Below, one piece after another: positions 4,341 to 40,621 of a stretch of 64,000 nt of DNA. The stretch is taken from the IMG/VR virus record IMGVR_UViG_3300021431_000122, positions 4,380 to 68,379 of that record. One strand, given 5' to 3'. The stretch is from a virus. Its lineage: Duplodnaviria > Caudoviricetes. Numbering within the stretch: position 1 is the first letter of the stretch; each line of letters begins with the position of its first letter. The notes beneath the pieces are model-generated. The model ran no database searches. It was given only the letters and a program-made list of their open reading frames with translations, and was not told where the DNA came from. The position numbers and the translations under genes are program-made.

Positions 4341-4805
4341 ATGGCTGAATATTCAGCAAATGCCGTCCAGACTGTGAACCCCGGAGAATCCGTTGTGTTT
4401 ACAGATACCCCTGTTCCATGTGAGCGTGGTTTCATTCGGCACAGAGATGATTCGGGAAGTTTTCTTCTTAAGGGTGCTGTGTTAAGACGGCCTTGTGGAT
4501 GTCCATCTTCGCAGTTCGCCAATTATCTGGTAGACTTCAGTGCCAATATTGCCATTCCTACCGGAGGAACCGTTGAGGATATATCTTTGGCGGTCACGAT
4601 AGATGGTTCTACTATTCCTTCCAGTACAATGATTGTAACTCCTGCCGCAGTTGAAAATTATTTCAACGTGTCCGTTGCAGTTACAGCACAGATTTGGACG
4701 GGCTGTTGTGAAACAGTTGCAGTTCGCAACACAAGCAGTCAGCCGATTCTAGTACAGAACGCCAATATTATTTTGACAAGGCCAGATCTGGCCGTCACAA
4801 GATAA
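4341..4805 (+). CDS. BclA-CTD/C1q-like beta-sandwich protein (cassette gene 5)
   Basis: Beta-strand-rich; QTVNPGESVVFT, YLVDFSANI, ISLAVTIDG, VQNANII. Fold assignment from recognition only. Confidence 0.55.
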   Translation: MAEYSANAVQTVNPGESVVFTDTPVPCERGFIRHRDDSGSFLLKGAVLRRPCGCPSSQFANYLVDFSANIAIPTGGTVEDISLAVTIDGSTIPSSTMIVTPAAVENYFNVSVAVTAQIWTGCCETVAVRNTSSQPILVQNANIILTRPDLAVTR

Positions 4806-4818
4806 GGGGAGGAGAAGG

Positions 4819-5241
4819 ATGGTAGACAAAACGATTACTGATCTCAAAGACCTTCTAATGGAAGAGATCAAAAAATTAACAAAAAAGAATGACTTGTCTC
4901 CAGTCGAACTGGAGAATGCTGATAAGGCATTAAAGTTGATTTGCAAAATAGAAAAGATGGAACGTGGAGAATATGCTGATGATGACGAAGGCTATTCGTC
5001 TCGCAACTATTGGATTTCATCTTATGACCATCCTATGCGTTATTACGATAATCGTAATGGCAATCAGTCATATGCTCGTGGCAGATATAGTTCTCGTAGT
5101 TATGATAATAATTACAGCGGTCACAGCATCAAGGATCGGATGGTTTCGCAACTTGAGTCTATGTACGATGAAGCAAAGACAGAACACGAACGACAGATTG
5201 TTGACGAGTGGATTAAACGCATTGCTTCGGATAATATGTAA
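4819..5241 (+). CDS. Hypothetical protein, helical N-terminus with R/S/Y-rich low-complexity segment (cassette gene 6)
   Basis: RBS ggaggag; YARGRYSSRSYDNNYSGH. Confidence 0.75.
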   Translation: MVDKTITDLKDLLMEEIKKLTKKNDLSPVELENADKALKLICKIEKMERGEYADDDEGYSSRNYWISSYDHPMRYYDNRNGNQSYARGRYSSRSYDNNYSGHSIKDRMVSQLESMYDEAKTEHERQIVDEWIKRIASDNM

Positions 5242-5244
5242 TTA

Positions 5245-5271
5245 TGGTGGGGCGGTTCTGCCGCCCCATTA
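5245..5271 (+). terminator. GC-rich hairpin closing the cassette (no U-tract)
   Basis: tggggcgg-ttctg-ccgcccca. Confidence 0.4.
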
Positions 5272-5300
5272 AAAACAAGGATTAAAAGGAGAACTACAAA

Positions 5301-5918
5301 TTGGAAGAATTACAGATTGCTCTGCCAGAAAACCTTGAGACTATGCAGTTGCCAGATCCGGGGTATGTTAATTACTGGAGACTGTTTAATGATAGAATTG
5401 TTTATATGGATACTGATATTGATGATAATGCTCTTGAAATACAGAAGGATATTTTATATTTCAATATGGTTGATGTGGGTATCCCCAAAGAAGAACGTAA
5501 ACCTATAAAGATTATTATTAATTCTCAAGGTGGTTATTTAGCTGAAGCAATGAGTCTTGCAACTACATTTAAACTATCTGAGACTCCGGTATGGACATAT
5601 AATGCAGGTTATGCTTATAGCGGTGCTTGCATTCTGCTCGTTGCAGGACAAAAACGTTTTGCACTCCCCTACTCTTTCGCACTTTTTCACAGTGGATCTG
5701 GTGGAGTGTCTGGAACATTTGAGCAAACACAAGAGGCTCAGAAGCAATACAAGAAACAGGTAGATGATATGAATAAGTTCTTCATGGAACAAACAACCAT
5801 TGAAGATAAAGTGTTCAAAAGAAACAAATCTAAGGATTGGTACTTCTCTGTTGACGACCAGTTAAATTATGGACTCGTTGATTGTGTAGTATCATCTCTT
5901 AATGAAATTATTGTATAA
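5301..5918 (+). CDS. clpP: ClpP-like serine protease (TTG start)
   Basis: IKIIINSQGG, AYSGA (Ser), LFHSG (His), KDWYF (Asp), YGLVD. Confidence 0.88.
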   Translation: MEELQIALPENLETMQLPDPGYVNYWRLFNDRIVYMDTDIDDNALEIQKDILYFNMVDVGIPKEERKPIKIIINSQGGYLAEAMSLATTFKLSETPVWTYNAGYAYSGACILLVAGQKRFALPYSFALFHSGSGGVSGTFEQTQEAQKQYKKQVDDMNKFFMEQTTIEDKVFKRNKSKDWYFSVDDQLNYGLVDCVVSSLNEIIV

Positions 5919-5925
5919 TGACTAC

Positions 5926-6536
5926 CATTGGTAGTCTTGCTGTGCGTACAAATATCTTGGTGAAGATGCGCTAGTCACGTTGCCAAGAGCATCTGAAATG
6001 CGAGAGCTTACGGGTTGGGATACTGGCCAGTAGGCTCTTTTGATTTTGTCGTGAGACAATTTCGTCAAGGAAGGAAACCTCCAAGGCAAAGGATGTGTAC
6101 TGCATTATATCGTTGTATAGTGCCAATTTCACGCCGTCCCGAAAATACACCGCCACTAGGAGTGGAGCAACCCTGATGCCATGTGCGTAGGAAACACATG
6201 GAATGGAGTAAGTAGGGGAAACCTAAAAACAAGGGATGTTGTCGTTGATCTCTGGGAAACCGGAAGTATAAGGCGTGTTGGTTGGGTGAGTAGGGCAAAG
6301 CGACAGTCATGGTTACAGAAGAACAACATCGAGTGGTATGTGTTATAAAATTCTGAATGATGCCTGAAAGTTGTGGGCGAGGAATCCCACATGAGTTATG
6401 GAGTTACTACTCTGGGGTAAGAAGTGTATGGGCGACGGCTCATATGCTCAGACTTATCTCCTCATTCGCATAATAATATAACCATATAGTGTGGCAAGAC
6501 GAAGGTCTATTTGTTTGCACAGCAAGGCTACTGATG
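5926..6536 (+). ncRNA. Large ornate ncRNA, ROOL-like (GOLLD less likely on length)
   Basis: 611-nt gap with no credible ORF. Closed by a 20-bp helix (5926-5945 with 6517-6536, several G-U pairs). Several GNRA-capped hairpins. Motifs gggtgagtagggcaaa, gaatgatgcctgaaagttgtggg..aatccc and gctcagac resemble ROOL as recalled; not verified by a covariance search. Confidence 0.7.
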
Positions 6537-6557
6537 ACGAATAAAAGGAGAAACAAT

Positions 6558-7751
6558 TTGGCAGACTACATACGTTTTGACGGTGAGTCAGACGAGGAAC
6601 TGATATATAGAGTTTGCTCTGACAAGGATAAGATTGGTACTTGGGATGATGTCGCTACAATTTTAAATCGACTGCTTGGTACTGATTATGGCGAAAGTAC
6701 ATTTCGCAAAAAGTATGTTGCGTTTACAAAAATGTTTGATGCTAATCGTCGGCGGTTTGTTGATGCTGATGGACAGTTGGCTGAAATCAATACGAAGATT
6801 CGTGAGCTTCAAAAGGAGCGTGCAAAACTCCAGAGTGAGAAGCTTGAATATAATCGTTATCTCCGAGAGGACGCTCGTGATGAATTAATCATGGAACACA
6901 TCTGCGATGTCATTTCTTCCCTCCCTCCGCTTGAGCGTCCTCTCCCAATTCTTCCGTTTCATGGTCATAAAGAATATGCTCTGATTTTTGGCGATGAGCA
7001 TTTTGGTGTTGAGTTTACAATACCCGGTATTAATAACGAAATTATTAATGAGTATAGTCCAGATATCTTTATGAAACGGATGGATTTATTATTGGCTAAG
7101 GTTACTGAGAAAGTAGAGTCCGAAGGTATTGATATCTTAAATGTTTATTCTATGGGTGACTTTTCTGACGGATGTTTGCGTGTGTCTCAGTTACGTAAGC
7201 TACGGTACGGTGTAGTTGAGGGAACTATTAAGTACGCAGATTATATTACTCATTGGCTCAATGATTTAACCAAAGTTGTCAATGTAAGATTCCAAATGAC
7301 AGACGGAAATCATACTGAACTTCGTCAGCTAGGACAACCAAAGGGAACTTTTGTTGATGACAATATGGGAAAGGTCGTTCGTGAGTTTATTAAAACTCGG
7401 CTTGCAAATAACGCCAACTTTGAGTTTGTTGAAAATCCTACCGGATATATTTTTGACGAGTTATGTGGATATTGGATTCTTGGTATTCATGGTGAAGTTA
7501 AAGACATGTCTTCTGCTCTTAGAGATTTTGCCCAGATATATGGTGTTCCAATTAATTATCTTATTGCGGGACATATGCATCATAGTCGCAATGAGGAGAT
7601 TGGTATTAATGTCGAAACTATTAATGTGCCATCAATCATTGGTGTAGATCCGTATTCTATGGCCCTTAGAAAAACTTCGTCTCCCGCTGCGAAGCTTTTA
7701 GTGTTTGAAGAGCGGGAAGGAAAAAATTGCGAATACACATTTAAACTTTGA
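6558..7751 (+). CDS. Calcineurin-like metallophosphoesterase with N-terminal helical/coiled-coil region (YonH-like; TTG start)
   Basis: GDEH, GDFSDG, GNH, HGE and GHMHH motifs; RBS aaaaggag 7 nt before the TTG. Confidence 0.85.
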   Translation: MADYIRFDGESDEELIYRVCSDKDKIGTWDDVATILNRLLGTDYGESTFRKKYVAFTKMFDANRRRFVDADGQLAEINTKIRELQKERAKLQSEKLEYNRYLREDARDELIMEHICDVISSLPPLERPLPILPFHGHKEYALIFGDEHFGVEFTIPGINNEIINEYSPDIFMKRMDLLLAKVTEKVESEGIDILNVYSMGDFSDGCLRVSQLRKLRYGVVEGTIKYADYITHWLNDLTKVVNVRFQMTDGNHTELRQLGQPKGTFVDDNMGKVVREFIKTRLANNANFEFVENPTGYIFDELCGYWILGIHGEVKDMSSALRDFAQIYGVPINYLIAGHMHHSRNEEIGINVETINVPSIIGVDPYSMALRKTSSPAAKLLVFEEREGKNCEYTFKL

Positions 7752-7752
7752 T

Positions 7753-7793
7753 GAGGTTGCGGCATTGCCAAATAGTGGCGGTGTCGTGATTTC
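7753..7793 (+). other. 18-bp G-U-rich hairpin directly upstream of tRNA-like element 1
   Basis: gaggttgcggcattgcca-aatag-tggcggtgtcgtgatttc. Confidence 0.55.
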
Positions 7794-7798
7794 ATATA

Positions 7799-7875
7799 GG
7801 GCGCTTAGTTCACGTTCGGCAAAACTAATACGTACTAACTACGTATTGTCGGAGGTTCAAATCCTTCAGCGTCCG
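7799..7875 (+). tRNA. tRNA-like element 1 (aberrant anticodon arm, no CCA)
   Basis: Acceptor gggcgct/agcgtcc; T-arm ggagg-TTCAAAT-ccttc; anticodon arm is 8 bp (aatacgta/tacgtatt) with loop CTAAC; 3-nt variable region. Confidence 0.7.
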
Positions 7876-7903
7876 TTATCAAGGAATATAAGGAGATATT
7901 ATT

Positions 7904-9205
7904 GTGGCAGTACAAAAGAAAGGTATGAAGGTGACAAGCAAACGCACCACTACTTCTGCTCCTGTTACAGAGCGCAAGTCTGCCGCAGAAGTCAGACAAG
8001 AGAACGAAAAACTCTTAACAGAAAATCAACGATTAAAGAACGGTGCGTTTTGTTATATGTGCGGAAGGCACTTGGTGAAAGATCGGTTTTATGTTAGTAC
8101 CGATCCAAGAATACAAAGCGGTGTCTGTCCTATATGTAAAGATTGTGCTAGGAAAATTGCACACAGGATAGATGTCAATGGAGATGAACATGAACCTACG
8201 AAGGAATCTGTAATAGAAGCTTTGCGTTATCTGGACAAACCATTTATTGAGTCTGTGTGGAATGCAAGCATTCAAGAGTCTGCCAATCTTACGGCAGGTA
8301 AGACAAAGTCTACACCTTGGATGGCATATGCCAAAAACATTCAGATGGTGAATTATGTTGGTTTAACTTTTAAAGATTCGGACATGTTCAAAGTCCATAT
8401 CAAATATGACGATGAAAAGACCGAACAGGAATTAGTTGAAGAACACTCTGGTCAAGATACATATGATAGTTTTTTGAAAAACAAAGCTGACGTTATTCGG
8501 CTTCTTGATTATGATCCATTTGAGCGAGAACCAGTTAGTGATCAGCCGTTCTTATATTCTCAGCTTCTTGGAATGCTTGATGCTTCAGAAGATGCTAATG
8601 AGGATATGATGCGGGTCTCGTCTGCTATTCAGATTGTTCGTGGATTTCTTCAACTTCAGAAGATTGACGATGCTATTGCGAAGCTGATGGGTAACGTGAA
8701 TCAGTTGCAGGACAACTCTGCAACTATCAAGTCGTTGCAGGACAGTAAACAAAAGATTACAAGTATGATTACTAATCTTGCTGCTGAGAGTTGTCTGAGT
8801 TTGAAGAATAGTAAGAGTAAGACGAAGGGTGAAGATACTTGGACTGGTAGACTTCGTAAAATTAAAGATTTGAATTTGCGAGATTCAAGTTTAAATGGAT
8901 ATTCACTTGAAACCTGTAAAGGAATGCAACAAGTTGCGGATATTAGTATGCAAGCCATTATTAAAGGCTTGCGTCTGACCGAAGATGAGATGTCAGACAT
9001 TGTTGCAACGCAGCGTAAAAAAATTAAAGAAATGGATTTGCAAACAAAATCATACAAAGAAGCTGTTCGTATCTTATTAAGAGAAAATTTAGATCTTAGA
9101 GATACGTTAAGTAAATATAATATTGATAATGGCAATCTTGTCAATCTCGATGAAATTGTTAATACATATATTCTTCCGAGAAACGAGGTTGATTCAAATG
9201 GATAG
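7904..9205 (+). CDS. Zn-binding protein upstream of TerL (YonG-like; possible small terminase)
   Basis: CYMCG...CPICKDC; C-terminal coiled coil; overlaps the TerL start. Confidence 0.55.
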   Translation: MAVQKKGMKVTSKRTTTSAPVTERKSAAEVRQENEKLLTENQRLKNGAFCYMCGRHLVKDRFYVSTDPRIQSGVCPICKDCARKIAHRIDVNGDEHEPTKESVIEALRYLDKPFIESVWNASIQESANLTAGKTKSTPWMAYAKNIQMVNYVGLTFKDSDMFKVHIKYDDEKTEQELVEEHSGQDTYDSFLKNKADVIRLLDYDPFEREPVSDQPFLYSQLLGMLDASEDANEDMMRVSSAIQIVRGFLQLQKIDDAIAKLMGNVNQLQDNSATIKSLQDSKQKITSMITNLAAESCLSLKNSKSKTKGEDTWTGRLRKIKDLNLRDSSLNGYSLETCKGMQQVADISMQAIIKGLRLTEDEMSDIVATQRKKIKEMDLQTKSYKEAVRILLRENLDLRDTLSKYNIDNGNLVNLDEIVNTYILPRNEVDSNG

Positions 9206-11135
9206 TTATAAAGTTTGTTATGATAGTTATTTGGCTGATAAGTGTATTTATGGTAGTGATTTCGTAAGAGAAATTCTTGGAGTTGAAAATCAATATAATA
9301 ATATTTATGTTCCTCACAGAGATTATTCAATAAGCAACAAAAAGCTTGAAGGATTTATAAGATTAAATGAAGAGCGAGATTATTATCAGCAAAATCCAAT
9401 TAAATTTTTTGAAGATTTTTTCAGAATACAGTTACTAGATTCGCAGGCGTATCTTATGCAATCCGCATGGGTAACGAAAAATGTTGTCGTTTGCGCCTGT
9501 CGTGCGTGGGGAAAAACATTGTGGATATCATGGTTTGTTATGGGGAAACAAATGCTTTCAAGTGAACCATGGAATTGTTATATAGCTTCCGGTTCTAGTC
9601 AACAGTCGGCAACCACCTTTCGAAAACTTGAAGATGTTGCCAATGATAGAATATCAAGTTTAAGAGGATCGACGGGTAAGCTTTTTAAAAACGAGGTTGT
9701 GGTTAATGCAGCTGCGGGAGATGGATTTAGTCATAATCCATCTGGTTTTGAATATAAATTATATAATGATTCCTTTACAAAATCGTTGTCGTCGAACGTA
9801 GATCGCGGTAGAGGTGCTAGAAGCGACTGTGTTGTATACGATGAGTGTGGCTTTTTGAATAGTAATCTAATCGAGGTGTACAAGGCGTTTTGTGCCGTTG
9901 ACAATTCTTTTGCTACTGGATTTGATGAAAATGGCAATAGTATAGACATGGTTAGACTTTTGGCATCACCCCAAGCACCACCCAAACAATTGGTATATGT
10001 GTCTTCTGCTTCAAGCGTTGATACGGAATTTTATAAAATTTACAGAGATTATAGTAAACAAATGATTGCAGGTGATCCTGATTATTTTGTTGCAAATATT
10101 GATTGTGATCTTGCTATGCGTCCAACTATTCATAATGTTCCAACTGTATCAGCATTAACCAAAGATATGATTGAGGCTACAATGAGAACCAATCCGGTTA
10201 AAGGAAGACGAGAGTATTATTGTGAGTTTTCAGAAGATGCGGGGGCTGATGCAATCATTAAACGTGGGGTTATTACCAGAAACGAAGAGACTAGACTTCC
10301 GCTTTTATATAATGATACTGGTGATAAAAAATTTATTCTTGCATATGATCCCGCAAGAAGCATGGATAATTCTGTTATTGGTGTAATGGAGTTATATACA
10401 GTTAAATTAGTAGATGGATCAGAAGATCTTCGTGGTAGGATTGTTAATTGTGTAAATCTTATGGATGTTGGTAAAAAGCTTAAAACTCCTATGCAAACAC
10501 CAGATCAAGTTAATTATTTAAAACAGATGATACTTGATTATAACGCAGGTGCTGATGCTTATGGCAATATTAGTAGTGTGCTAATTGACGCAGGTGCCGG
10601 AGGAGGCGGTGTAGGCGTAGGAGATTACATAATGCAAGACTGGGAAACTTCGGATGGTATTATTCACAGAGGATTAATTGACAAGGAATATTCTTCGGAA
10701 TATGTTCCACGATTTCCAAATGCAGTTGACAAGATAAAATTATTGTCTCCCTCTTCATACAAGTCAATAATTTATGAATCGCTCATTGAGATGATGAATC
10801 AAGATAAGATTTCTTTTACTTCTACTTATGACAATAAAGGTTATTTGACTTTATTTGATATAGATGAAGAGGTTTTAGCAAAAGAAAAAGAAAGAATAAG
10901 TGAAAAATTAAGAAAACAAAAACTGAATCAAAAAGAATTTGACGAGAAATTGGCTGAGGAATTAGATAAAGTTCAATCTGTCAATACTAGGATTCAGAAA
11001 CTTTCATGGCAAGAAGAATTGGCTCTTGCGAATATCGATGCAATGAAAGAAGAAGTTGTGAATATCGTTCGTAAGAAGAGAGATTCTGGTCGTGACTCTT
11101 TTGATTTGACACCAGAAAAGGCACGAATTATGCAT
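9198..11135 (+). CDS. terL: Terminase large subunit, exon 1
   Basis: Walker A CRAWGKT, Walker B VVYDECG, nuclease LAYDPAR; ends at ...KARIMH. Confidence 0.92.
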
Positions 11136-12446
11136 AAACAATATTGTGCCTATGCGGCATAAATCATAATCCGCATAGAAAACCCGATCTGATTGACTTG
11201 GAAACCCAGAAGTGGGCAACAGGGCGCAAGTTTAAATACAGCGTGAACGACTGAGTGATTGGGATTCACTTATGTGAATATGCGACAGTCTGAACTCGTA
11301 ATATAACATAATGAAATACGAGAGATGTGGTCGAGTGTAAAGACACTCTTGGAAGAACCGCATTCGTTGATTTGTATATTCCAGATCTTGGAGGACAGGA
11401 ATATAACAGGAATATATATGATAAAAAATGTTGTGAATGGCAAGATGTACATAGGACAATCCAAAGATATAAAATTTAGATGGACGCATCATAAATGTGA
11501 TTTAAGATGTAATTGTCATTCTAATAAACACTTGCAAGGAGCATGGAATAAATATGGTGAAGACTCTTTTGAATTTTCTGTGATAGAAGAAACCGATCCA
11601 GATAATTTAAATAGCAGAGAAAGATATTGGATTACAAAATACAACTCTGTTAACAATGGTTATAATTTTGACTATGGTGGAGATGGTTGCTTTGGATATA
11701 AGCATTCAGAAAACGAAATTAATAAGATGAGGAGAATTCAATCACCAAATATCATATTACAATTTGATAAAGATTGCAAGTTTATCAAAGAATGGATTGG
11801 TGGTGCTTCCCATATTTATAAAGAACTTAAATACACAAAAGAATGTGTGCTTCTTCGATGCAACCATAAAATAAAAGAAATGTCTCTTTATAAAGATTCG
11901 TATTGGGTTTACAAGGAAGAGTATGAGCATCATGATTTTACATGGAATAAATACTTTGCAAATGAAAAAATTGTCGACATAAAAAAGAAGTCTAATAAAA
12001 CAGTGAAGCGTATTTGTCAATATACCAAAGACAGAGAATTGATAAAAATTTGGGACTCGTTGAAAGACATTAGAGAAGCGGGTTACAATACATCTCCAAT
12101 TTCTACGATTTTACATTTCAGCAGAGGGAAAAGAACGTCTCAGGGTTTTATTTGGACTTTTGAAGATTATGATTTTTCTGATGGGTATTTTGATGGTTTG
12201 ATTAAATATAAAAACAAAGCAAATGATAATCGAAAAATCAGAGTGATACAAGTCGACTGCAACACATTAGAACATGTTGCCGAATACGAATCAATAACTA
12301 AGGCTGCTGAAGCGCTAGGACATAATTGTTCTGGCGCTATTTCTATTGCAACAAAAAATCCATTTATTAAAACTTCGTGTGGTTTTTATTGGATTAAAGC
12401 TTCTTAATGGAATAATTTGAATATACAAATCAACGTAACAAAATTG
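11136..12446 (+). ncRNA. Group I intron in terL (1311 nt, carries a homing endonuclease)
   Basis: P1 exon gcat pairs with intron gtgc (U-G); P2 ctatgcgg/ccgcatag; P7 gactg (11249) / cagtc (11286); terminal G12446. Splicing restores IMH|DDRSY. Confidence 0.92.
11388..12407 (+). CDS. GIY-YIG homing endonuclease with three NUMOD1-like C-terminal repeats (start codon uncertain)
   Basis: TGIYMIKN..NGKMYIGQS..RW..H..LQ.AWNKYGE. Lies in a peripheral intron loop bounded by cgttgatttgtatat (11365) / atatacaaatcaacg (12421). Confidence 0.9.
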   Translation: MEDRNITGIYMIKNVVNGKMYIGQSKDIKFRWTHHKCDLRCNCHSNKHLQGAWNKYGEDSFEFSVIEETDPDNLNSRERYWITKYNSVNNGYNFDYGGDGCFGYKHSENEINKMRRIQSPNIILQFDKDCKFIKEWIGGASHIYKELKYTKECVLLRCNHKIKEMSLYKDSYWVYKEEYEHHDFTWNKYFANEKIVDIKKKSNKTVKRICQYTKDRELIKIWDSLKDIREAGYNTSPISTILHFSRGKRTSQGFIWTFEDYDFSDGYFDGLIKYKNKANDNRKIRVIQVDCNTLEHVAEYESITKAAEALGHNCSGAISIATKNPFIKTSCGFYWIKAS

Positions 12447-25622: not shown

Positions 25623-28600
25623 ATGGGGCGTGAAGCTATAATTGATGTATCGTTAAGATTTAATTATGAAAAGACACATGGTAGTCTTAACAATTTAAAA
25701 AAGGGATTGCGTGAAATTGGAGAAAGTGTTGATGTTGACTCTCCAATTCGTGAGCAAGTTAATAGAATTGAAGGCGCTGTAGATGAACTGCAAAATAAGC
25801 TGGACAGTTTAAAGCTGGGTAAAATAAGCAGTACTGCATTTAATAATGCCGTTAATGATATTAACAGTTCAGTAGATGAGCTTTCAAAGCGCATGCTTGC
25901 TTTGGAATCATTATTTCAAGGCAGTGGCGATGGAGCAAGCAATCTTCTTAACAATGCTAAATCAGAATTAAAGTCTGTAGTTAATATGGCTAACGAGGCA
26001 ATGGATGCTGTAAAAAAAATCAGAGAAGCGTCCGGTGCCAATTCTATAAATATTATTGATACCAAAGAATTAGAAAACAGGAAAAAAAAACTAAAACAAT
26101 TATCTGATGCGATTGAAACCGCAGAAGAAGGTGGTTTCAGTATTAAAGATAAGACCAAATTTAACAGTCGTACAGATAAAGAAAATTTAGATTTATATAT
26201 AAATCGTATTGAAGAGTTAACCAAACTGCAACAAAAATTATCATCTACTAAAGTTGATGATCCAGGTTTTGCCGATCTTGCAAAAGATGTTGCTACTTAT
26301 TCAGCGAGTGTATCTAAGCTTTATAATGCTATTACTGAAAAGATGACTGAAACCGGAAGTGATACTTTTGCCGGTATGAAACTTTCTGGTATTGACGATT
26401 TATATAACAATGCCGCTAAAGCAATGTCGTCAGCTCGTGATGTTATTGACAAAGGTGTTCGTGATATCAATGATAGCATGGCTGCTCTTGGAAATAAAAG
26501 TAACGAGCCAGAGACAATCACATTGGATTTTAAAACGTCAACTACAGAATTAAAGGAAAAACTTATAAAGATGATTTCTGCACTTCAACAGGTGGCTGCT
26601 TCTCATCCTGTCGAAGTGGAATTAAATTTTACCTCTGGTTGGGCAACAAAGAAAAATAAAAAGCTGCTTAAGGAATTTGAAACAAAAATTAATAGTCTAA
26701 CCGACAAAACTACAAAAGAAGAAATGCAGAAGTTAGTTGATGATATTTCTGCTAGTTTTGGTAATAGATTAGATTTTGAGATTAAGTCAGAAAAACTTGA
26801 TGATGTAGAAAAAAAAGTCAAAGATCTTGTAGATAATTTAAAAGACATTCTTAAAGAAGACTTTTCTGTAGAGATATCAAAAGCATCATTTTCTGATGAT
26901 GTTAAATCTACTCTTCAAGATTCACTCAATGATATTGCAAAAAATTTAAAGATAGTTATTGATAACGTTGAACTTGGTGAAAATGTAAATGTTGCCGATT
27001 TACAACAAGCAGTTTCCAATATTAATAATACTATATCCAATCCACGGCTTTCTGATATTTTAAGACAAATATACGAAGCTAATAAAGATATGGATGATTC
27101 AAAATTTACTCATACGGACAATATAAATGGACAAGAAGTAGAAAGATATTTTACAAGCTTAGAAAGAAAATTGTATGTTAATTCAAAAACTGGATGGATT
27201 GGCAATCCATTTTATGCAGGAATAAGAGAAGGAACTCCTAGATTTAATAAGCAAATAGCAGAAGCTAAATCCGCAGGAGCTGATGTTGGTATTCATACTC
27301 ATCCAAGCAGTCTTTCTGCCATGTCTTATTTTTCTACTGGTGATTTTAAAAGTTTTTATGACCAATTTATATTTGATAAAATGAAGAAACAGGTTGTTTC
27401 TTCTCGAATTGATGCCGAAATTTTTGATGTTGAAGGTTTCTTTTCAAAGTATGCGGATCTAATAGATTTTGCAAATCAATCTGTTTGGGACGAATTAACA
27501 AAAGAGGAAAGCAAATTTCAGGAACAATATAGAAAAATTCCAAATCGTGATAGATTTTATAGTTTTTTTAAAGATCAAATGACCGATGAAGATTATGATA
27601 CATTTATTTCAAATATATTAGAAAAATATGCTCTTCAAAAAGATCTTGATGTTTTAAAGAAAAATGGAAGTATTAAATCGCAATTAGAAAAAATATATGC
27701 GAACGATAAAAATACAAATATCACTACTGCAATAAATCAGCTTTTAAGAGGTTCATTGTCTGACAAACATATACAACGGTTGACTTCTAGGAAAGACATT
27801 GATTTTAATGGTGCTATTACTGGAAGTATTACAAAGATAATGGCTTCGCATGGATATGATTTACAAGATGCATTTCAATATCATTATGGCCAATATATGA
27901 AAACTGCTGTTGAGAATGCATGGGGAAAATATTCTAAAGATGGAAAAAGTACCAAGGATATTGGAGAAGATCTTGTAAATAATTTTATCAAGATTGTGCC
28001 TTCCGAAAAACTTGATGAAGCACTCGGTATAAGCGGAATATCTCAGGCGGCAAGTGAAGCTACATCATCTACTAAAACTCTTGGAGATGCATTACAAGAA
28101 ATTGTTAATATACTAAACGAAATTAAAGCGGGTTCTAATTTTGCTGATATATTCAAAGGTGTTTTTGAAGAATCTTCTGAACTTAAATCTTTTCTCGATT
28201 CTTTGAAAAAAGTGTTTAATACCATTGAAGAGATAAATGGCGCATTAACCAATGCATCTCCAACCGACACTCTTGGAGACATGAGTGGTATTAGTACTAC
28301 AATTGAAAACATAAATTCAGAATTAACAACTTTAGTAGGTATATTAAAATCATTTCCAGATATTTCTAATCAAATAAAATTAGACGACACCTTTAAGGCG
28401 ATGGCTGATTATACTGAACAGCTTGATGATATAAATCTTAAAGATGGCAATATGAAATCGGTATATAAAGACTTGATTTCTAATTATTGGGATTATGTTA
28501 AATCTGGTGGAACAAAAGATATAACAGAGTTAACTAGTAATAAAAAAGCTCAGAAGAAACTTAAAAATGGTTATGAAAGTTATTTAAAATTACATCCATT

Positions 28601-31600
28601 ACCCAACATTGAAGACGATGCTGCTAAAATGAAAAGTAGCATTGAGACTATTGTTAAGGCTGTAATCGAATTACGTACTTCCGTTGGCGAGAACTTTGGA
28701 AGTATATTTTCTGGAGATCTTGGTTTTAAGGATGCGGTTACCGGAATTCAAGATGTGGGCAATGCTCTCTTCTCTCTTCTTGAAATAATTGAAAAGTTTA
28801 CTGGCATATCTTCTTCTGCTACGCTTGACAAGTTATTCTTTAATCTTGGTTTTGAAACCGAAACAATGGGTAATATAGATGCGAGAAGCAAGGCATTCAA
28901 GAATATAATAAAACAGTATGATGAATATGTAAAAGCTGGCGGAACAAAAAAAATATCGGATCTGACACCAGACGAAGCTGTTAAAAAGAAGCTAGATACT
29001 GGTTATTCCAACTATATTAAAAAGCAACAAAACGCCGAAAAGGCCAGTCGTGCTGCGGTGAAGGCCAGAGAATCTGTAATGAAGGCCGAGGAGGAAGAAA
29101 TAGCATCTTTTGGTGCTGTAGCTGTTCCGGTTGATGAGGTAGATGAAAAAAATGATAAATTGCAAAAATCGTTTGAAGAAGTTGTAAATGGCATTAAAGA
29201 TGTACAAACTTCTATTTCTACCTTAAAGGATTCTCTTAACTTCTCTGAAGGTGTAACTGGTATTAACACACTTGTTTCATCTATGGAGAATTTAATCGCA
29301 TTATTAGAAAAGATGTCTGGATTTAAATCTAAGGCAACTCTCGATAATATATTTTCAAATCTCAGTGAAACAACAAAAGCACAGAGCAATTTAAAAGCGA
29401 ATAGTAAAATATTTAAAGATATTCTCGGACAGTACGATGAATATTCACAACTTGGTGGAACTAAAGACATAACAGAATTAACTGACGATGTTAAATTACA
29501 AGAGAAGCTTCGTGCTAAATATGCAGAGTATGTGAAGGCTAGACAAGAAGCTGAAGCAGTATCTAAACAACAAGCTACCACCTCTCAAACTTCGGCTGAA
29601 TCTGCAACCAAAGAAGCTTCGGCTTTACAAGGCATCACTTCTGCTGCTACTGCTGCTGCTACCGCAAAGGAACTGTTTACAAAAGCTAATCAAGGCGTAA
29701 ATAATTCTGCAATTAAATCGGCTGATTCAGTAGATGCTGAAGGCAATGCAATGTCTAGTGTTGCTAAAATTGCGTCTCAAATGCATGAAGCTAATATTTT
29801 GATGGGGCAAAATGAGGACGCAGCAAATGCTAAAGAACGTGGATTCTTTTTTAACACTGCTACGAGTCATGTTGGAAATCCTTTCTTGGTTGGCAGTACA
29901 GGTTCTTTTCCTCAGCATAAGTTAGATAAGACTGGGATGAATGCATTTTTGCATACACATCCGGCAACAATTGGTTCTTTGTCGCTTATTGACAAACATG
30001 GTGATTCATATAGCGGTGATCTAGTTTCTTTTATTAGCCAACTTGAAAAGGGCATATATACACAGATTATATCCGGGTCTGAAGAAAGTCAAATAATAGA
30101 TTTTAAAGGATTTGCTGAAAAATATAGCGAAAATTTAGATCATTTAAAAAAAGATGCTCCAAATGCCAATAAAATTCTTAGGGAAATCTTTAGAGACGAG
30201 GCAAAATCTTTCAAGGATTCTTATATAAGGAGCAACATGTCAGATTTTGTGGCTTATTATATAGAACAGTTAAGGAAAGATGAAGCAATATCTAATGATG
30301 ACGTAGTAAAATTAATTGATTCATTAGAAAATGAGGCGTCCATTTTTAATAATGGTGATGTAACGAAATATTTATTAGATAAATTTGAAGCTGCCAGATC
30401 AAATCCTGATATTGATCAAGGAATTAATCACATATTTGATTATATATTTCGTCCTCAAAATGCAGATGTTGAATTAGAAAATATACTAGAAAAGATTCAG
30501 TATAGTGGTTATGATTCAATACAAACCACTTTTAACAAATTAATTGATGAAAGTGAACTTCGCAAACTTTATCGTGATGTAGTAACCCCTAAGTTCTTTG
30601 ATGCATTATTAGGTGAAGGTGCCGGTGAAGATTTCATGAAAAACTTCCAGCGTGTGGTCAAAACAGAAGATCTTGATGAAGCGTTGGGAATGAAAGGTGT
30701 TTCTGCACAGGCTAGCAATCTAGTAGAAACATACTCTCTCATTAAGGAGATATCGGCAATTCTTTCTGGCTTCGGAGATGGTGCCAAAGGGTTTGAAGCA
30801 CTAAATAAAATCGTCAACAATCTTGGCGGTAAAAATGGTGATGCCAAATTACAAGCCACCGTAGATGGATTACGTCAGATATTTGAAATTCTTAATACTC
30901 CGATGTCTGAGTCTAGTATGATGGAGGCCATTACTAAAATTGCTGACTCCGGAGAAAAACTTAAAGACCTTGCCACTGTTTTGAAGTCTACAAAAAAAGA
31001 TCTTGATAATGCAAGCAAGACGGTTGCAGGTGAAAATCAGCCTAATACATTTACCGAAGATGAATTTGAAAAGGAACGTAAAATACTTGAAGAGGGTCGT
31101 AAGTATTTAAGTAATTATGGTCAAGTGCTTGATGTAGTATTATCAAGAGGCAAAAACGGTATGACCAATCTTGTATCTAGAGTTATGGGTGAAGATCCAA
31201 ATACTCATGAAAAGAAGATACAAGAAGTAAAGCTTACTACTGCTGACGGTCGTTATTTTACAAGAGATTACATCAAACAGAATACTGCTGATCTTGCTAA
31301 ATATATGATGCAGATGCAACGTGCCAAAGAATTTGCCGAATCAAGGATGAAGTTTGGCACAGAAGAAGTTTTTCTTAAAGATGATACTGATGAAGAGACA
31401 TGGAATAAATTAATTAGTTATGCTTCGCAGTATGCCGAGCAGATAGGTAATATTCTAAAGATTACTAGACAAACAAGACAAAATGCCTCTGGTAACCTTC
31501 TTGAATCTTTTACATTTGTTGGTGACAAAGGTCATGTTACAATGGGGCAGGAATTTGATGAGGTTGCTAGTAGTCAAACCTACACTAATCCTCAGCAGAT

Positions 31601-32933
31601 TGCTTCTGCTTATGATAATTTAACAAGGTCTGTAAATGCGTATGTTAAAGCTAAAATGGAATCTTCACTTAAGAGTGGTGATTTCGGTGATACTGCTGCT
31701 ATAAATGAAATTGATACTCTTGTTAATAAACTGACGATAGATACACAAGAGGCAAATCAAAAACTTGGTAGCATGCAGAACATTGCACAAGAAGCTAAGG
31801 TGCGTTATGAAGATGCATTGTCCGGTGCTTATGATAATTATATAAATGATTATTTAAAAAAGGCACAGGGACAGGTAGATAGGGCAAATGCTACTCGTGC
31901 AAACCAACGCAATGGATATACAGAAGAATATCTTGAACAATTAAAGAAATATAAAGAAGTTTCTGATGAGTTAAAAACTTTACGTGAAAGTCATCAAGCC
32001 GGACAGTTATGGAATAATGATGAATTAGAAAAAACGGTTCAGCTTATTCAAACAATAGAACGAATACTTCCCGGTTTAAAAGATAATAATAATATACTTG
32101 CTAAAACAAGCGATATTGATAAAGAGCTTTCAAAACTCAACAAAGATTTAGCCGACAACTCTATTAGCGGTGAATTATTAAATAGATATATGACCTTGGT
32201 TAACTATCTTAATCAAGTGCGTACAGCCGGTGAAGGAGCCGCCGAAGGCTTATCTCAGATTAGTAAGATTGAGTTAGGAAAAGTGAAAGACGAAGTCCAA
32301 GATCTTCATAATCAAATGATCCAAACCGGTCAATATGGTAAGGGATTTTGGAAACAGTTTACTGGTGCTATTACATCTAGCAGTGCCAATTTCTTAGCAA
32401 CATATTTTAGTCTTCAAGATATCATTAGATATGCACAAGATATAACATCAACTGTAACAGCTATAGATAGTGCGCTTATCGAATTGCAGAAAGTTTCAGA
32501 TGCTTCCAACGAAAGAATTCAACAGAACTTTGAAAAGTCTGCTCAGACAGCACAAGATATGGGTGCAACTATAACAGATGTTATCAATTCCACTTCCGAT
32601 TGGGCTAGACAGGGTTATACGGTTGATGAATCTGAAGAACTTGCAAGAGTGACTCAGCTTTATCAGAATGTTGGTGATAATATATCACAGGAAGAAGCGA
32701 GTAAATCGCTTGTTTCCACCCTTCAAGGTTTCCAACTTGGAGCAGATCAAGCCGAATCTGTAATTGATAAATTCAATGAAGTTGCAAATAATTTTAGTAT
32801 TGATACATATGGAATAGGTCAAGCATTAGAGCGTTCTGCTGCATCTTTCTATGCAAGTGGAACCGATCTCTCAAAAGCAGTTGCACTTGTTACAACTGCC
32901 AATACCGTTCTCCAAAATCCAGAATCCGTAGGT
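25623..32933 (+). CDS. Tape measure protein, exon 1 (2437 aa)
   Basis: Long helical protein; TP901-like TMP core begins near 32460 and is cut at NPESVG. Confidence 0.88.
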
Positions 32934-33234
32934 ATATAATATGTGCCTACCCATATAGTAATATATGGATAATAAAAGTAGCTATATCGGTCAAATGCCA
33001 GAGATGGTTTAGACCGAGGTAAGATAATCAGAGATGTGTAAAAGCACATCTTTTTTTATTACCGTAGAGACTGTAATGGGTGTTATGGTAACATAACAAC
33101 CTTCGCTACTCTCCCACTATGTGGGATGAAGATCCAGTCCGAACTGCGACGATAATCCAATATGAAATCGCAGAGATGGCCAGAAACGACCATCCGCTAT
33201 CAGTTTATCTGATAGTCATAAAAGTAACAGAATG
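32934..33234 (+). ncRNA. Group I intron (301 nt, ORF-less) in the TMP gene
   Basis: P1 exon gtaggt pairs with gcctac; P2 ccatata/tatatgg; P7 gactg (33069) / cagtc (33135); terminal G33234. Splice gives PESVG|TTFKTLSARLRG. Confidence 0.92.
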
Positions 33235-36200
33235 ACAACATTCAAAACTCTTTCTGCTCGTCTTCGTGGTTCTACTACAGAATTAAAAGAACTTGATGAA
33301 GAAACAGATGAGTATACAGAGACAACATCAAAGCTTAGAGATCTTGTTGAAGGTCTTACTGGCTTTGATATTATGGAGGATGAGAACAACTTCAAGGATA
33401 TCTATGAGATCCTTGTTGGAATTGGTAAGGAATGGGATAATTTAACAGATATTGAGCAAGCATCTCTTTCAGAAGCGTTAGCTGGAAAGAGAATGTCAAA
33501 CGCATTATTTGCTATTCTTAATAATATTGATACTCTTGAGGAAGCTTATAAAACAGCAGAGGAATCTGCTGGATCTGCTCGCAGAGAAGAAGAACACTAT
33601 GAAGAATCGGTTCAGTATAGAATTGATCAGACAAAGGCAAGTCTTCAGGAATTGTCTTATGATTTCTTAAGTTCAGATTTTCTCAAAGGATTAATTGAAG
33701 GTGCCAATATTTTTCTTCAAAAGCTTGATGAGATTGTTGAAAAGGTTGGTACGTTAGGTTCTTTAATTGCTGCGTTTACTGCAAAAGACTTTTTCATGGG
33801 TGCAGCAGGTGGAAACAGTATTTTCGCAGAAATCTTTAAAACCGCAGTTGGACCAAATGGCGATACTGGCACAATGATTGGAAACATCAAAAAACTAATA
33901 AGCGGAAAAGAAAATAAAGATGTTTCCAATGCAGCAAAAGCCGCAGGTAATGTCGCAGGAGAAGCACTTTCTCAGGGTGTTGCTGATGGCGTAAAGGATG
34001 GCGCAGCAGAAAAAGTCACGGAAGATGTTGTTAAGTCCGTGGCCGAAGGCGCCACTGATGCGGTTACTGAAAATGTAGCCGAATCTGGTGTTAAAAATGT
34101 TGTAGAAGCAGTAACAAAGACTGCATCGGAAGTTGCAGACGATGTTGCCGATGGTGCAGAAGACATTCTTGCTAAAGCTGTTGTCAATGAGTCCACGGAA
34201 GCAACAATGTCTAAAATGGCAAAACCACTTGCCGAAGGTGTTATTGATACTCTTGAAACCACTTTTGACGATGGTGATGCGGGAATTATTTTAGCCAACT
34301 CTTTAATTAATACAGAATCCATTTCGGAAGTTGCGGACGATGTTGCCGAAGTAGCCGAAAAGACATATGCCACCTATGCCGATAAATTAGCAGACATCGC
34401 AAAAGATGGGCCGATATTTAAGGATGCCGAACGAACATTAGCTAAAGGAGCTGCCGAAGCCGGTGAAGTTGCGGGTGAAGCAATGGCTGGAGGTATGGCA
34501 TCTGGGGCGTCTTCTGCCGCAGGCGGACTTGGATCAAAACTTGTTGCCGCTCTTGGTGGGCCAGTTGGAGCCGCTATAGCGGGTGTGGCAACCGCAGCTT
34601 TAGTAGGTTTAGCAATTGCAGGAGCTGTAAAACGTGCAAGAGAAGAAGCCGTAGAAGAAGCAACTCAAGAGGCTATGGATCTTGCGGGTCGTCAGAGCGA
34701 CATGGACAACACTATTGCTCGTGTCGAAGAACTTCGTAACAAATTAAAAGATTCAAATATCACAGAGCAAGAAGCATACAACACAAAGATTGAATTACTT
34801 TCAATTCAAGAACAACTTTCCGATTCTTATGGAACTCTTTCAGGGCAGATAGATCTTGTTAATGGTTCACTTAAGGAACAAATTGGCTTAATGCAACAAG
34901 CATCGGTATATGATGCAAATAAATTTTTAAACGAGAATGATAAAGCCATAAAAATTGCGACAAAGGAAATGACGAAAGAGCTAAACGATTCCTTGTCGCA
35001 AGAAATATCCATGTATGATCCCGCATTTGACAAGGTCAAAGAGATTGTAGATAAGTATAATTCGTTTAAATTAACATCTACTCAAGACGGTCTTTACCGT
35101 TTAGATATTACTGGAAATGTTCAAGAGGTTAATAGTCAGATAGTTAACTTTATGGCAGATCTTCGTGAATTAAGAGATGAATCTGGCAGTTATGTCGTTG
35201 ATATGTTATATGATAATCTTGACGGATATAATAATCATTATCAAGATGTCATAGATAAGAATCAGGAACTTTATAAAAAAGGTCTTGAAAATTCGTTATT
35301 AGTTAACGGGTTTGATGATTCTGGTAATCTCAAAGAAGATTCTGGCCTGAAGTATCTTAATGACCTTACTGCTGCCGCTGATACATTGAACGATTCTATC
35401 ATTGGTGTTAATGATATATCAGTTGATGAAGCTCTTACCGGATATAAGAATGCGTGGATTGCGGCCCAAGGTTTCTTGAAAGATTCTCCGCAATACTCTG
35501 TCTTATTTGATGAGGTTGCCGAATCTGCAAATACATCAAATGTTTCGCTTGCGAAATTCAAAGAAAATGTTAACGATTCCGATTCAAGACTTGGCAAATT
35601 TGCAAAAGATGTTAAGGATTCAAAACTGTCTGAATCAGATATCTTTGATATTTTGTATGGTAAAACTACAAATGTAGGTTCTGGATCTGACGCTATTCTT
35701 GCTCTTGCAAAAAGCTTTGGAATTCTTAAAGGGGATGTTGCTCCTACTGAGGCACAGATTACTTCTTTTGTTGATGTATTAAAAGATCTTGGTGTGATTG
35801 CTTCTGATGTTGCAGAAGATGGTACGATTGATTTAAGTGGTTTCTTCAAAGAAGCCTCCAATGCTGTTGCTCAAGTCGACAAGATGAATGCCGCTCTTGT
35901 CAGTGGATTGCAGAGCGGAGGCATGTCAATTAGCTATGAAGTTGGAGAAAATGGCGAAGAGTCTTGGACTGGCACTATAGAAGATGTCAGAAAAGCATTT
36001 GGCGAACTTGAATCGTTTAACATAAACGGTTTATTAAAGCGCACATCTAATGGTGTTAAGGTTAATCAGAAAGCATGGCGTAAACTTCGTCAAGAACAGG
36101 AGAATTTACAGAAGAAGAAGTTTCTTGAGAAACAAGCCGATTTAACAGCTCAACTTACCGATTTGCAAACGCAGTTGATTGCGGCTCAAGCCAAAGGTGA

Positions 36201-39200
36201 AGATACAGGAAATCTACAAAAAAGAATTAGCGACCTTCAAGAAAACATAGACAATGTCAACTTTCTTGCAGCTGCTTATGACGGTGCAACATCAGCGTAC
36301 CAGAAATGGTTAGATGTACAGGCAGGACCTAAAGAGGGAGATATCTACGACAATATACGTGACAATGCGCTTACTCGTGGTGATGAACTTCTTAAGAATG
36401 GAATGGTTGGCGATGAATTTAGATCGATTGCGCAGATGTTCAGTTCAGAAGATCTTTCAACTGCACCACTTGAGCAAGTAATTGAAGCGTATCAAGCTAT
36501 TGATAAGATTGTTCCGGGTACTACTAAAAAAGTTCGTGATTTCTTCACAGAAGATATGCAGGGCGCATTCGCCTTTTCTGATGCATTAGTTGAACTTGGA
36601 TATGCGACTGGCAGTTCCACAGAAGGTTATGAATTCGGTTTATTTACTACCGAAGAAATTGCTAAGTCTCTTGGAGTTAGTCAAGATATTGTAGATGCAA
36701 TCTTTGACAAGATGCGTTTGTTTGGTGCTGACGTTACTCTTCTATCTGATGATGAAGTCGAAAAATTAAAAACAGCAGGTAAAAACGTAGACGAGCTTCA
36801 AGATAAATTAGAGAATCTTAACAAAGAGCAAAAAGTAACTAAAGATAGTTCTGAATTAGATATCTCTGTAGCAACCAACTTTAATCTTGATGAATTAAAT
36901 ACCGTCGATGAATTACAAGGTAAAATTGACGAACTAAATACTCTTCGTGCAAATCCTAATATTTCTGATGAGAGCGCAAAAATTCTTGACAGCATTCTTG
37001 CTGAAGTAATTAAAAAGCTTGACATAATTAATGGTACAGATGCAAATCCTGACGTTATTACAATTGACGATGTTATTCAAGCGCAAGAACAGTTGGATAC
37101 TCTTAAAAAGCGTCTTGCACAGATTAAAGAATATAACGACACTCATATAAACGTACAGGTTAACGCAGAAGAAGATCAAACAGTTCAAGATATTGCAGAA
37201 TACCTTGCGGGACTTGACGAGGGTCTTCAACTTGATTTAGGTATTAATCCTGAAAATGTTGGCAATGCAGAAGCTATTATTGAGCAGTTGTTAAGTGGTG
37301 ATTTAAAAATCGAGGATGTCACCGGTGTCAAAGAAGGAGTTGAAAAAGAACTCAAAGCTGCTGATACTTCTGTTGATGTAGAAGCACATGTTAATACCGA
37401 TGGTATGAATGATCCTAATACGCTCATTCAAGAAAAGTTTGCAACAAAAGGTATAACTACAACAAATACTGTTAATACCAAAACTACCGGACAAGAAGGT
37501 GTTGATTCTCTTTCTGATTCTATAAACAATGTTAATGATAAAAAGGTAAATGTTGAAGCTAAGGTCAAAGGCACTGGGACTGTCATTGCTCTTGACAGGT
37601 CGATTGACGATCTTACAGGGAAAAAAGTAGAGGTCACGGCAGAGGTTCATGGAACTGGAACCGTAATGGCTCTGGCTAGTGCTATCAATGATTTAAGAGA
37701 TAAAGACATTACTGTAACCACACATCATAGAAATGATGTTAATGGAACTGCCAACAGAAGCACTCAAGCTAACGGTACTGCTCATGTAGGAGGCACAACT
37801 TATGCTCATGGTAAATGGGGCGCACCTCGTACTGAGACTGCTCTTGTTAATGAGCTTGGCCCAGAGATAATTGTTCGTGATGGCAGATGGTTTACAGCCA
37901 ATGATGGTCAGCCCGGATTTACAGGAATAAAGAAGGGTGACATTATCTTTAATCATAAGCAGTCTGAAGAACTTCTCAAGAATGGTTATGTCACAAAGGG
38001 CTATGCTCACATGGCATTTGCTGAAGGAACTGCATATGCTAATGTGGGAAGTTGGGGAGCTTATTTTACTCAACAGCAATATAACAAGCAAGGTATTAAT
38101 ACTGCAAGTACGGTTCAAGCATCTGCTGTTAATGCGGCTAATGCTGTAAAGGATGCGGCGAAGAAGGTTAAGGATGATGTTGATAAAACCGTTGACTGGA
38201 TTGAAATTCTTCTTGACAGAATCGACCGCAGAATTCAGACTCTTGCAGATGCGGCTGATGATACTTGGAGAACATTCTCATCTCGTAGAAATAATTTGTA
38301 TAAAGAGATAGATGCTGTAAGACAACAAGAAGTCTATGCACAGCAAGGAGCCGAGCGTTATAAGAAACAGGCTAATAAGGTCGGTCTTCCTGCCAACTTG
38401 AGAAAGCTTGTTCAGCAAGGTAAAATTGACATCTCCTCTGTTAAAACCGAAGACCTCAAAAAGAAAGTAGAAGAATATCAAGGTTGGTGGGATAAATATC
38501 TTGATTGTCTCGCTCTTGTAAAAGAGTCTCAATATACTCAGAACGAATTATTCAATCAAAATTATGACATGGTGAAGACTGAATACGAAGGTCTTCTTGG
38601 TAGTATTGAGCATTCGATTACTACTCTTCAGAATTTCATAGACATTGCCGAAGAAGACGGTCATTTCAGTAGTTCGAAATACTATACTGAAATGATTAAG
38701 TATGAGAAGAAAAATATTTCCACTCTTAAAAAGGAAAAGAAACAACTTACTACTGCTCTTAATGATGCGTTGGCTAATGGTCTTAAGGTTGGCAGTGAAG
38801 AATGGGTCAACATGACCAACGGCATCAAGGAATGCGATGAAGCAATTCAAGAGTCAACTAAGAACATCATCTCCTACAACAATGCTATTCGAGATCTTAA
38901 GTGGGAGCGTTGGGATTTCCTGATTGACCGCATCGAGGATGTTAATACAGAACTTAAATTCCTGTATGACCTTATTGATGAAGACAAGATGTTTGACGAC
39001 AAGGGTCTTGTCACAATTGCGGGCATGAACGGATTATCTCTTCTTGCGGAGCAGATGGATGTCTATATGAAAGAGTCTCAGAAGTATGCCTCAATGATAA
39101 AGACAACTGAGGAAGATCTTGCAAAAGACCCATATGATACTGACCTTATCGAGAAGCTTTCGGAACTTCGCAAGGCTCAACAGGATTCTATCATATCTGC

Positions 39201-40555: not shown

Positions 40556-40621
40556 GCGGCACTCGGTAGGTTAGTGGACTCATACATCCACTAATTGGAG
40601 GTTCAACTCCTCCGTGCCGTA
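40556..40621 (+). tRNA. tRNA-like element 2 (D-armless, Met-like CAT loop)
   Basis: Acceptor gcggcac/gtgccgt; T-arm ggagg-TTCAACT-cctcc; 8-10 bp stem ttagtgga/tccactaa with loop CTCATACA; only 6-8 nt replace the D arm. Confidence 0.7.

Follow-up and report, generated by a model that had tools for sequence, protein, structure and literature searches.

A full-length ROOL RNA between a ClpP-like protease gene and a metallophosphoesterase-type gene in a fragment of a probable large gut phage

ROOL RNAs (Rfam RF03087) were described as a family by Weinberg et al. in 2017 (PMC5737381) and occur on bacterial chromosomes and megaplasmids as well (PMC12990946). The solved members are flat, multi-junction monomers that, with no protein involved, build closed dihedral cages (PMC12286853, PMC12990946): the env-120 ROOL is an octamer (PDB 9MDS; PMC12286853), and PMC12990946 gives an octamer for the E. 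faecalis ROOL and a hexamer for that of L. salivarius, which has a very short apical stem. In the solved ROOL cages the unconserved linker is disordered and points into the interior (PMC12286853). A second RNA, GOLLD, likewise assembles into cages made of RNA only, and its disordered linker lies inside (PMC12286853). With ROOL catalogued since 2017 and its cage solved in 2025, one further copy counts for little as a discovery.

We analysed a stretch of viral DNA of 64,000 nucleotides (the window), part of an IMG/VR record of 68,379 bases that is ~40% complete by CheckV estimate and that, judged by its neighbouring genes, is a fragment of a large tailed gut phage. The whole 64-kb window was scanned against 4227 Rfam families at curated thresholds (cmscan), and ROOL was the sole family above threshold; the 68-kb record likewise holds a single ROOL. 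The match reaches 291.8 bits, about three times the gathering score of 99.1, with E 5.9e-66, and runs over model positions 1–574 of 574 without truncation. Together with a closing helix that reaches beyond the ends of the model, it delimits the following gene, 611 nt long against a family mean of 581 (PMC5737381):

5926–6536, plus strand: ROOL RNA gene, the RF03087 match with its closing helix extending beyond the Rfam model ends
5932–6527, plus strand: Rfam core of the ROOL (cmscan, RF03087)

An initial annotation, made from the letters, had proposed a 611-nt non-coding RNA here, either a ROOL member or a new relative, and had named the Rfam ROOL and GOLLD models as a check. Membership in ROOL is borne out by the whole-model match and, as detailed below, by strong covariation and by matching contigs in RNA libraries, so that the option of a new relative is not needed; GOLLD, among the 4227 families scanned, stays below its gathering threshold in the window. 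The stretch 5926–6536 is a genuine, full-length ROOL, another member of a known family. Its strand is fixed as plus by the closing helix, whose G·U pairs become C·A mismatches on the opposite strand. The plus strand has a minimum free energy of −216.7 kcal/mol (z −5.64 against shuffles) and the minus strand one of −151.8 kcal/mol (z −4.39), making the plus strand 65 kcal/mol more stable; the region shows a strong G-over-C skew and a G+C content of 0.457, compared with 0.387 for the window.

The two genes that flank the RNA, and two short elements at its upstream edge, are as follows:

5301–5918, plus strand: ClpP-like serine protease, 205 aa (Pfam PF00574, E 5.6e-27)
5914–5919, plus strand: perfect −10 hexamer TATAAT, which shares bases with the clpP stop TAA (5916–5918) and lies 6 nt before the closing helix P1
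5920–5936, no strand: perfect palindrome of 17 nt, GACTACCA-T-TGGTAGTC, across the boundary between the clpP end and the P1 start
6558–7751, plus strand: metallophosphoesterase-type protein, 397 aa, with start TTG at 6558 and ribosome-binding site AAAGGAG at 6544–6550

The labels clpP and phosphoesterase, given in the initial annotation, both stand. The former is supported by PF00574; its product also matches PHROG 94 ('head maturation protease', 8.4e-24) and the NCBIfam ClpP models, the last below their cut-offs. The latter rests on five calcineurin-type motifs (GDEH, GDFSDG, GNHTE, GIHGE and GHMHH), on PHROG 284 ('exonuclease', 3.6e-47) and on a weak Metallophos_2 match (E 0.1); relatives align from residue 1 of the 397-aa protein, and neither a PDB sequence search nor NCBIfam gave anything usable for it. 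Further genes nearby include a weak large-terminase match, a GIY-YIG homing endonuclease and a portal protein (PHROG 2739, 1.9e-78) that is 24–27% identical to portals of SPbeta-like, Lactococcus and Bacillus phages. Putative large terminase and portal genes flank the endonuclease gene, which is of GIY-YIG/NUMOD1 type (window 9123–11162, 11325–12407). As a separate observation, two adjacent giant ORFs (25623–32939 and 33232–40548) each encode exactly 2438 aa; a tandem duplication was rejected, with 29% nucleotide identity at the offset and a best BLASTP E of 0.54, and the equal lengths appear to be a coincidence. No cultured relative can be named: among 50,697 phage records, megablast found no match to 5301–7751 and blastn none to the ROOL.

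Two routes to the RNA can be envisaged. The TATAAT at 5914–5919, with no recognisable −35 element, is a possible ROOL promoter and would direct initiation at about 5926, where P1 begins; the RNA might be transcribed from such a start or, alternatively, be excised at the 28-pair P1 from a transcript reading through from clpP. Other ROOLs are preceded either by a TTGACA/TATAAT promoter at 30–45 nt or immediately by the 3' end of a tRNA. The observations neither support nor contradict the co-transcription in the late operon that the initial annotation put forward. The palindrome that overlaps the start of P1 might bind a protein, fold into an alternative hairpin or be the scar of an insertion.

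The RNA fills its spacer, with P1 starting 7 nt past the clpP stop and ending 21 nt before the TTG, and a consensus scan around it finds neither a full σ70 promoter before it nor an intrinsic terminator after it. Such an arrangement speaks for a ROOL fold that acts in cis, as a 5' leader or intercistronic element controlling the processing, stability or translation of the phosphoesterase mRNA, and so does the recurrence of distant homologues of clpP (27–41% identity) or of the phosphoesterase (22–26%) on the same strand and within a few kilobases of ROOL at at least 17 other viral loci. The slot itself, however, differs among these phages: three loci (L010, L037 and L087) have ROOL upstream of clpP, and two (L054 and L075) have it downstream of the phosphoesterase. 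Moreover, of the 21 loci with the closest relatives of the phosphoesterase (55–58% identity), 16 were scanned and none has a ROOL within 4 kb, most ROOLs lie in tRNA arrays or have their own promoter, and the solved ROOLs are discrete RNAs (PMC12286853). We therefore regard control in cis as quite unlikely, and a discrete ROOL RNA as the better reading of the locus. ROOL thus shifts among intergenic slots around the ClpP-like/phosphoesterase gene pair in several divergent phages. This proximity may reflect a conserved gene order in one broad phage group that has a hot spot for small RNA genes; because shared gene order may explain it, we claim no functional link.

Several other RNA elements were noted in the neighbourhood of other viral ROOLs. 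In L006 a HEARO RNA (546–781, 121 bits) comes right after the ROOL and a tRNA, ~2.2 kb upstream of a phosphoesterase homologue; in L037 a group I intron (2674–2897, 85.7 bits) follows the ClpP-like gene by ~0.3 kb and the ROOL by 2.4 kb; and in three loci (L033 3098–3399, L067 1399–1816 and L070 3426–3737) tmRNA genes of 86–107 bits stand 0.7–2 kb from the ROOL, inside tRNA arrays.

The setting of the window copy differs from that of most ROOLs in one further respect. By Rfam, a tRNA lies within 300 nt of the ROOL in roughly 19 of 24 other loci; here there is no tRNA island, the RNA being wedged between two protein genes. A standard Rfam scan finds no tRNA at gathering score in the window, and the whole 68-kb record yields only two marginal tRNA-model matches, at 30.1 and 29.3 bits. 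The general statement of the initial annotation that such RNAs are often found near tRNAs hence does not apply to this copy, whose nearest candidate is a marginal element 1.26 kb downstream:

7799–7875, plus strand: marginal tRNA-like element with a broken D arm (RF00005, 29.3 bits against a gathering score of 29, lax filters only)

This element is syntenic with a canonical tRNA of a related locus (L025, 3706–3778, 73 bits) and looks to be decaying or remodelled. The other match (window 40556–40621, 30.1 bits) falls directly past the stop of a 2438-aa ORF; ARAGORN, for which it is the only tRNA in the window, leaves its type undetermined and gives it a four-base anticodon (cata).

We next describe the fold, beginning with the helix that joins the ends of the RNA:

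5926–5954, plus strand: 5' arm of P1 (20 bp, a 2×2 internal loop, then 7 bp)
6508–6536, plus strand: 3' arm of P1, inverted-repeat partner of 5926–5954

A repeat search recovers these arms as an inverted repeat of 29 nt with 83% Watson–Crick pairing. The outer 20 positions are fully paired, counting three G·U wobbles, and the inner part consists of the 2×2 internal loop followed by ACAAATA/TATTTGT (5948–5954 with 6508–6514), so that the 20-bp end-joining helix and its acaaata/tatttgt continuation, first noted in the initial annotation, are both present and correspond to the P1 of ROOL. With 28 pairs and a ΔG of −42.3 kcal/mol, the duplex is the strongest among 22 ROOLs. We considered whether it is also unusually long and rejected this: the 21 other ROOLs have 22–39 pairs, and closing helices that extend past the ends of the Rfam model are the norm in the family. 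The terminal helix is the ordinary P1 of a ROOL.

Inside P1, the Rfam alignment, the alignment of 23 viral ROOLs described below and direct reading place the following elements:

5956–5987, plus strand: P2 hairpin (Rfam alignment), whose loop L2 holds GUCA at 5974–5977
5974–5977, plus strand: GUCA in L2, 5' partner of a putative bridge B1, complementary to UGAU 6358–6361
6046–6059, plus strand: P3b, hairpin capped by GUGA, matching the consensus loop GUGA
6069–6082, plus strand: P3c, hairpin capped by GAAA (Rfam alignment)
6179–6201, plus strand: inner P8 helix CCAUGUG/CACAUGG with loop L8 (6186–6194), which holds UAGG at 6188–6191
6222–6225, plus strand: CCUA in junction J8/6, candidate bridge B4, complementary to UAGG 6188–6191 of L8 (direct reading)
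6252–6263, plus strand: P9, CUGG-GAAA-CCGG hairpin (Rfam alignment and 23-ROOL alignment)
6299–6346, plus strand: variable linker of 48 nt, an unconserved loop of the model with low posterior
6358–6361, plus strand: UGAU in the conserved UUCUGAAUGAUG block that adjoins the linker on its 3' side, putative 3' partner of B1 (direct reading)
6424–6447, plus strand: P18 hairpin with tetraloop GACG at 6434–6437, candidate site of the inter-half-shell bridge B6

Three of the internal helices picked out in the initial annotation agree with the family consensus, namely the gtc-GTGA-gac hairpin (6046–6059), the ctgg-GAAA-ccgg hairpin (6252–6263) and the ccatgtg/cacatgg helix (6179–6185 with 6195–6201). 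The fourth, agg-GGAA-acct (6214–6224), is no hairpin in the family model, which assigns these bases to the 3' strand of outer P8 and to the junction that receives L8. The linker is the gappy part of the 23-ROOL alignment and lies between the AGUAGC stem and the UUCUGAAUGA block. The loop L14 reads CGAGGAAU in the window, as against GUAAnCAAU in most members. The apical stem, P7, is short, at 4 bp, and for this reason hexamer versus octamer is not predictable for the window ROOL.

The contacts that hold subunits together can be compared with those of env-120, in which the residues of bridges B1 and B4 have been defined (PMC12286853, Supplementary Table 2). For B1, the corresponding alignment columns (51–54 with 568–571) are paired in 70.7% of cells, and three of the four pairs show double changes; across members the pairing covaries as AUCA/UGAU, ACCA/UGGU and, in a shifted register, GAUGU/ACAUC. 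The candidate B4 keeps the GG/CC core and places its two extra pairs on the opposite side, giving UAGG/CCUA rather than the GGUA/UACC of env-120; read directly from the window, this complementarity could be due to chance, and if real, its shifted register means that quaternary contacts may differ from those of env-120. In env-120, B6 is formed by a self-complementary GC in the L18 loop UUGCUAA (PMC12286853). Among the 23 aligned ROOLs, 11 have an L18 of the form U(C/A)GC(U/A), the GC-containing type of env-120, and the other 12 have GACG, which holds a self-complementary CG, has a covarying closing pair and might form an equivalent bridge. The loop of P3c makes an A-minor contact with P5 in env-120 (PMC12286853).

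The architecture was compared among viral ROOLs. Two conserved ROOL words, scanned through IMG/VR, led to 76 further viral loci; an Rfam scan of 27 of these confirmed 22 full-length and two end-truncated ROOLs, and the 22 were aligned with the window copy by MAFFT. Primary sequence is alike only in the conserved cores, which are all that blastn aligns between the window ROOL and 68 ROOL-motif viral loci. The alignment of 23 nonetheless contains 50 invariant columns, window included, and 55 nearly invariant ones. RNAalifold returns 90 pairs, 77 of which show compensatory double changes; the paired cells amount to 90.3%, compared with 65.4% in shuffled alignments (reached by none of 500 shuffles) and 37–44% with slid partners, a control that is somewhat generous, the structure having been derived from the same alignment, and the margin is large. 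The covariation score is 0.687 against 0.222. The covariation among homologous regions that the initial annotation had named as a check is thus found in abundance.

We used this structure in preference to the Rfam consensus because, when the latter is projected onto the window, 31 of its 152 pairs are non-canonical. These fall mostly in one helix of low posterior and are in part register quirks of the model; a shift by one base, for example, separates the projection from the natural pairs of 6121–6123 with 6468–6470.

The sequence also occurs in RNA libraries. Public runs that contain the ROOL stretch derive from gut and bovine-gut samples, and contigs identical or nearly identical to it come from three studies, in four metatranscriptome runs of gut or rumen. 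Compared over window positions 4800–8300, these contigs give presence only, and not transcript ends, strand or level. Three show zero differences, covering 5950–6433 (X15, 484 nt), 6035–6433 (X16, 399 nt) and 5955–6304 (X19, 350 nt); a fourth (X17, 5955–6440) is a close variant. The flanks 4800–5949 and 6460–8300 have no cover in X15, X16 and X19, and the uncovered part is not evidence. The stops near 6433–6440 probably reflect assembly branching, as they coincide with a block common to other ROOL variants, where contigs overlap 6415–6459 with loose ends. In X17, seven of ten substitutions and all six inserted bases fall in the linker, at 6306–6346; of the remaining three substitutions one is at an unpaired position and two preserve pairs of the Rfam alignment, changing U6174·G6215 to U-A and U6287·G6370 to C-G. 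This is the pattern expected for a structured RNA under selection. The window ROOL is either expressed or, at a minimum, represented in RNA libraries.

These results bear on the possibility that the copy is a decaying, non-functional relic lodged in a variable intergenic slot. Turnover of the slot is apparent in two syntenic relatives (L020 and L025), in which clpP is followed by a terminator-like hairpin and, in place of the ROOL, a small ORF of ~70–80 aa; the score of 291.8 bits falls in the lower half of the 23 full-length viral ROOLs (range 257.6–394.1); the copy departs from the norm in its L14 loop and its B4 register; and the tRNA-like elements of the record look degenerate. Against these points, the model match is full-length and untruncated, all 50 of the invariant family columns are kept, and 78 of the 90 covarying pairs form, within the 72–86 seen in other members. 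The pair-preserving substitutions and linker-restricted variation of X17, and the presence of the sequence in RNA libraries of three studies, point the same way, and we judge decay highly improbable; the copy is probably functional. A protein-coding or chance origin of the signal, in which the real feature would be one of the ORFs of 53–81 aa, can be dismissed, for although the region is overlapped by six short ORFs, counting both strands, the covariance-model E is 5.9e-66, homologues differ by compensatory changes in helices and not in a codon pattern, and the loops of the alignment are full of indels, with no reading frame conserved across homologues.

Taken together, we hold it very probable that the locus is a functional ROOL RNA gene and that its carrier is a large phage of a Firmicutes-type lineage, uncultured and from the gut or rumen. 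By homology with the env-120, E. faecalis and L. salivarius RNAs, the monomer, whose 5' and 3' ends P1 brings together, would adopt a flat multi-junction fold, and it is likely that the RNA forms a cage, in which six or eight copies would close into a dihedral shell without protein. Within each half-shell, kissing contacts would form between GUCA of L2 and UGAU 3' of the linker, and between UAGG of L8 and CCUA of J8/6; across half-shells, copies would be held by the P18 loop, here GACG, and the 48-nt variable linker would lie inside. What such a cage does can only be guessed at: it might sequester or shelter a translation-related macromolecule during infection, a low-confidence idea that draws weak support from the company ROOL keeps elsewhere with tRNA arrays and phage tmRNAs, and that is weaker still for the window copy, which lacks the usual tRNA neighbourhood. 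In one other viral locus (L083), a ROOL on the minus strand (495–1088) has a variable linker holding a complete tRNA (662–734, 51 bits); in the cited cage literature, embedded tRNAs are described for GOLLD and not for ROOL.

A bolder reading is that in the lineage of this phage ROOL, instead of being a passenger of tRNA islands, is functionally tied to the ClpP-like and metallophosphoesterase genes with which the packaging and head module begins, and that the GACG type forms a cage whose inter-shell contact differs from the solved one. We think this very unlikely; were the tie real, the cage could have a part in assembling virions, or it could serve the phosphoesterase as partner or substrate.

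Another phage-encoded RNA assembly is the pRNA of phi29, a homo-oligomer joined by intermolecular loop–loop pairing that functions in DNA packaging. Like it, the window ROOL gene stands at the head of a packaging and head gene block; unlike ROOL, pRNA is ~120–174 nt long and forms a ring on the portal, the two have no sequence or structural likeness, and we found no evidence linking ROOL to packaging. GOLLD resembles ROOL as a large, ornate RNA of phages and prophages often located near tRNAs, but is unrelated to it in sequence and fold. With ROOL itself the likeness extends to the full-length match, the P1-closed multi-junction architecture and the position of the linker; to the shared blocks GUGAAGA, GGAUAC, AAUA-AC, GUAUAA, AGUAG, UUCUGAAUGAUG..UGAAAGUU, CUGGGGUAAGAAGU, GCUCAGACUUAUCUCC and CGAAGG; to an origin in phages and in the rumen or gut; and to complementarity for a putative bridge B1 and a candidate B4. 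The window copy differs from env-120 in having GACG in place of a GC-containing loop at L18, CGAGGAAU at L14 and UAGG/CCUA instead of GGUA/UACC at B4, and from other ROOLs in standing between protein genes with no adjacent tRNA array. As a copy with no canonical tRNA nearby, it indicates that the role of ROOL need not depend on linked tRNAs; as a member of the GACG subclass, it carries an L18 loop of a type outside the cited structural descriptions of ROOL. In this combination of a tRNA-free context and a GACG loop lies its remaining value, as a data point on ROOL function.
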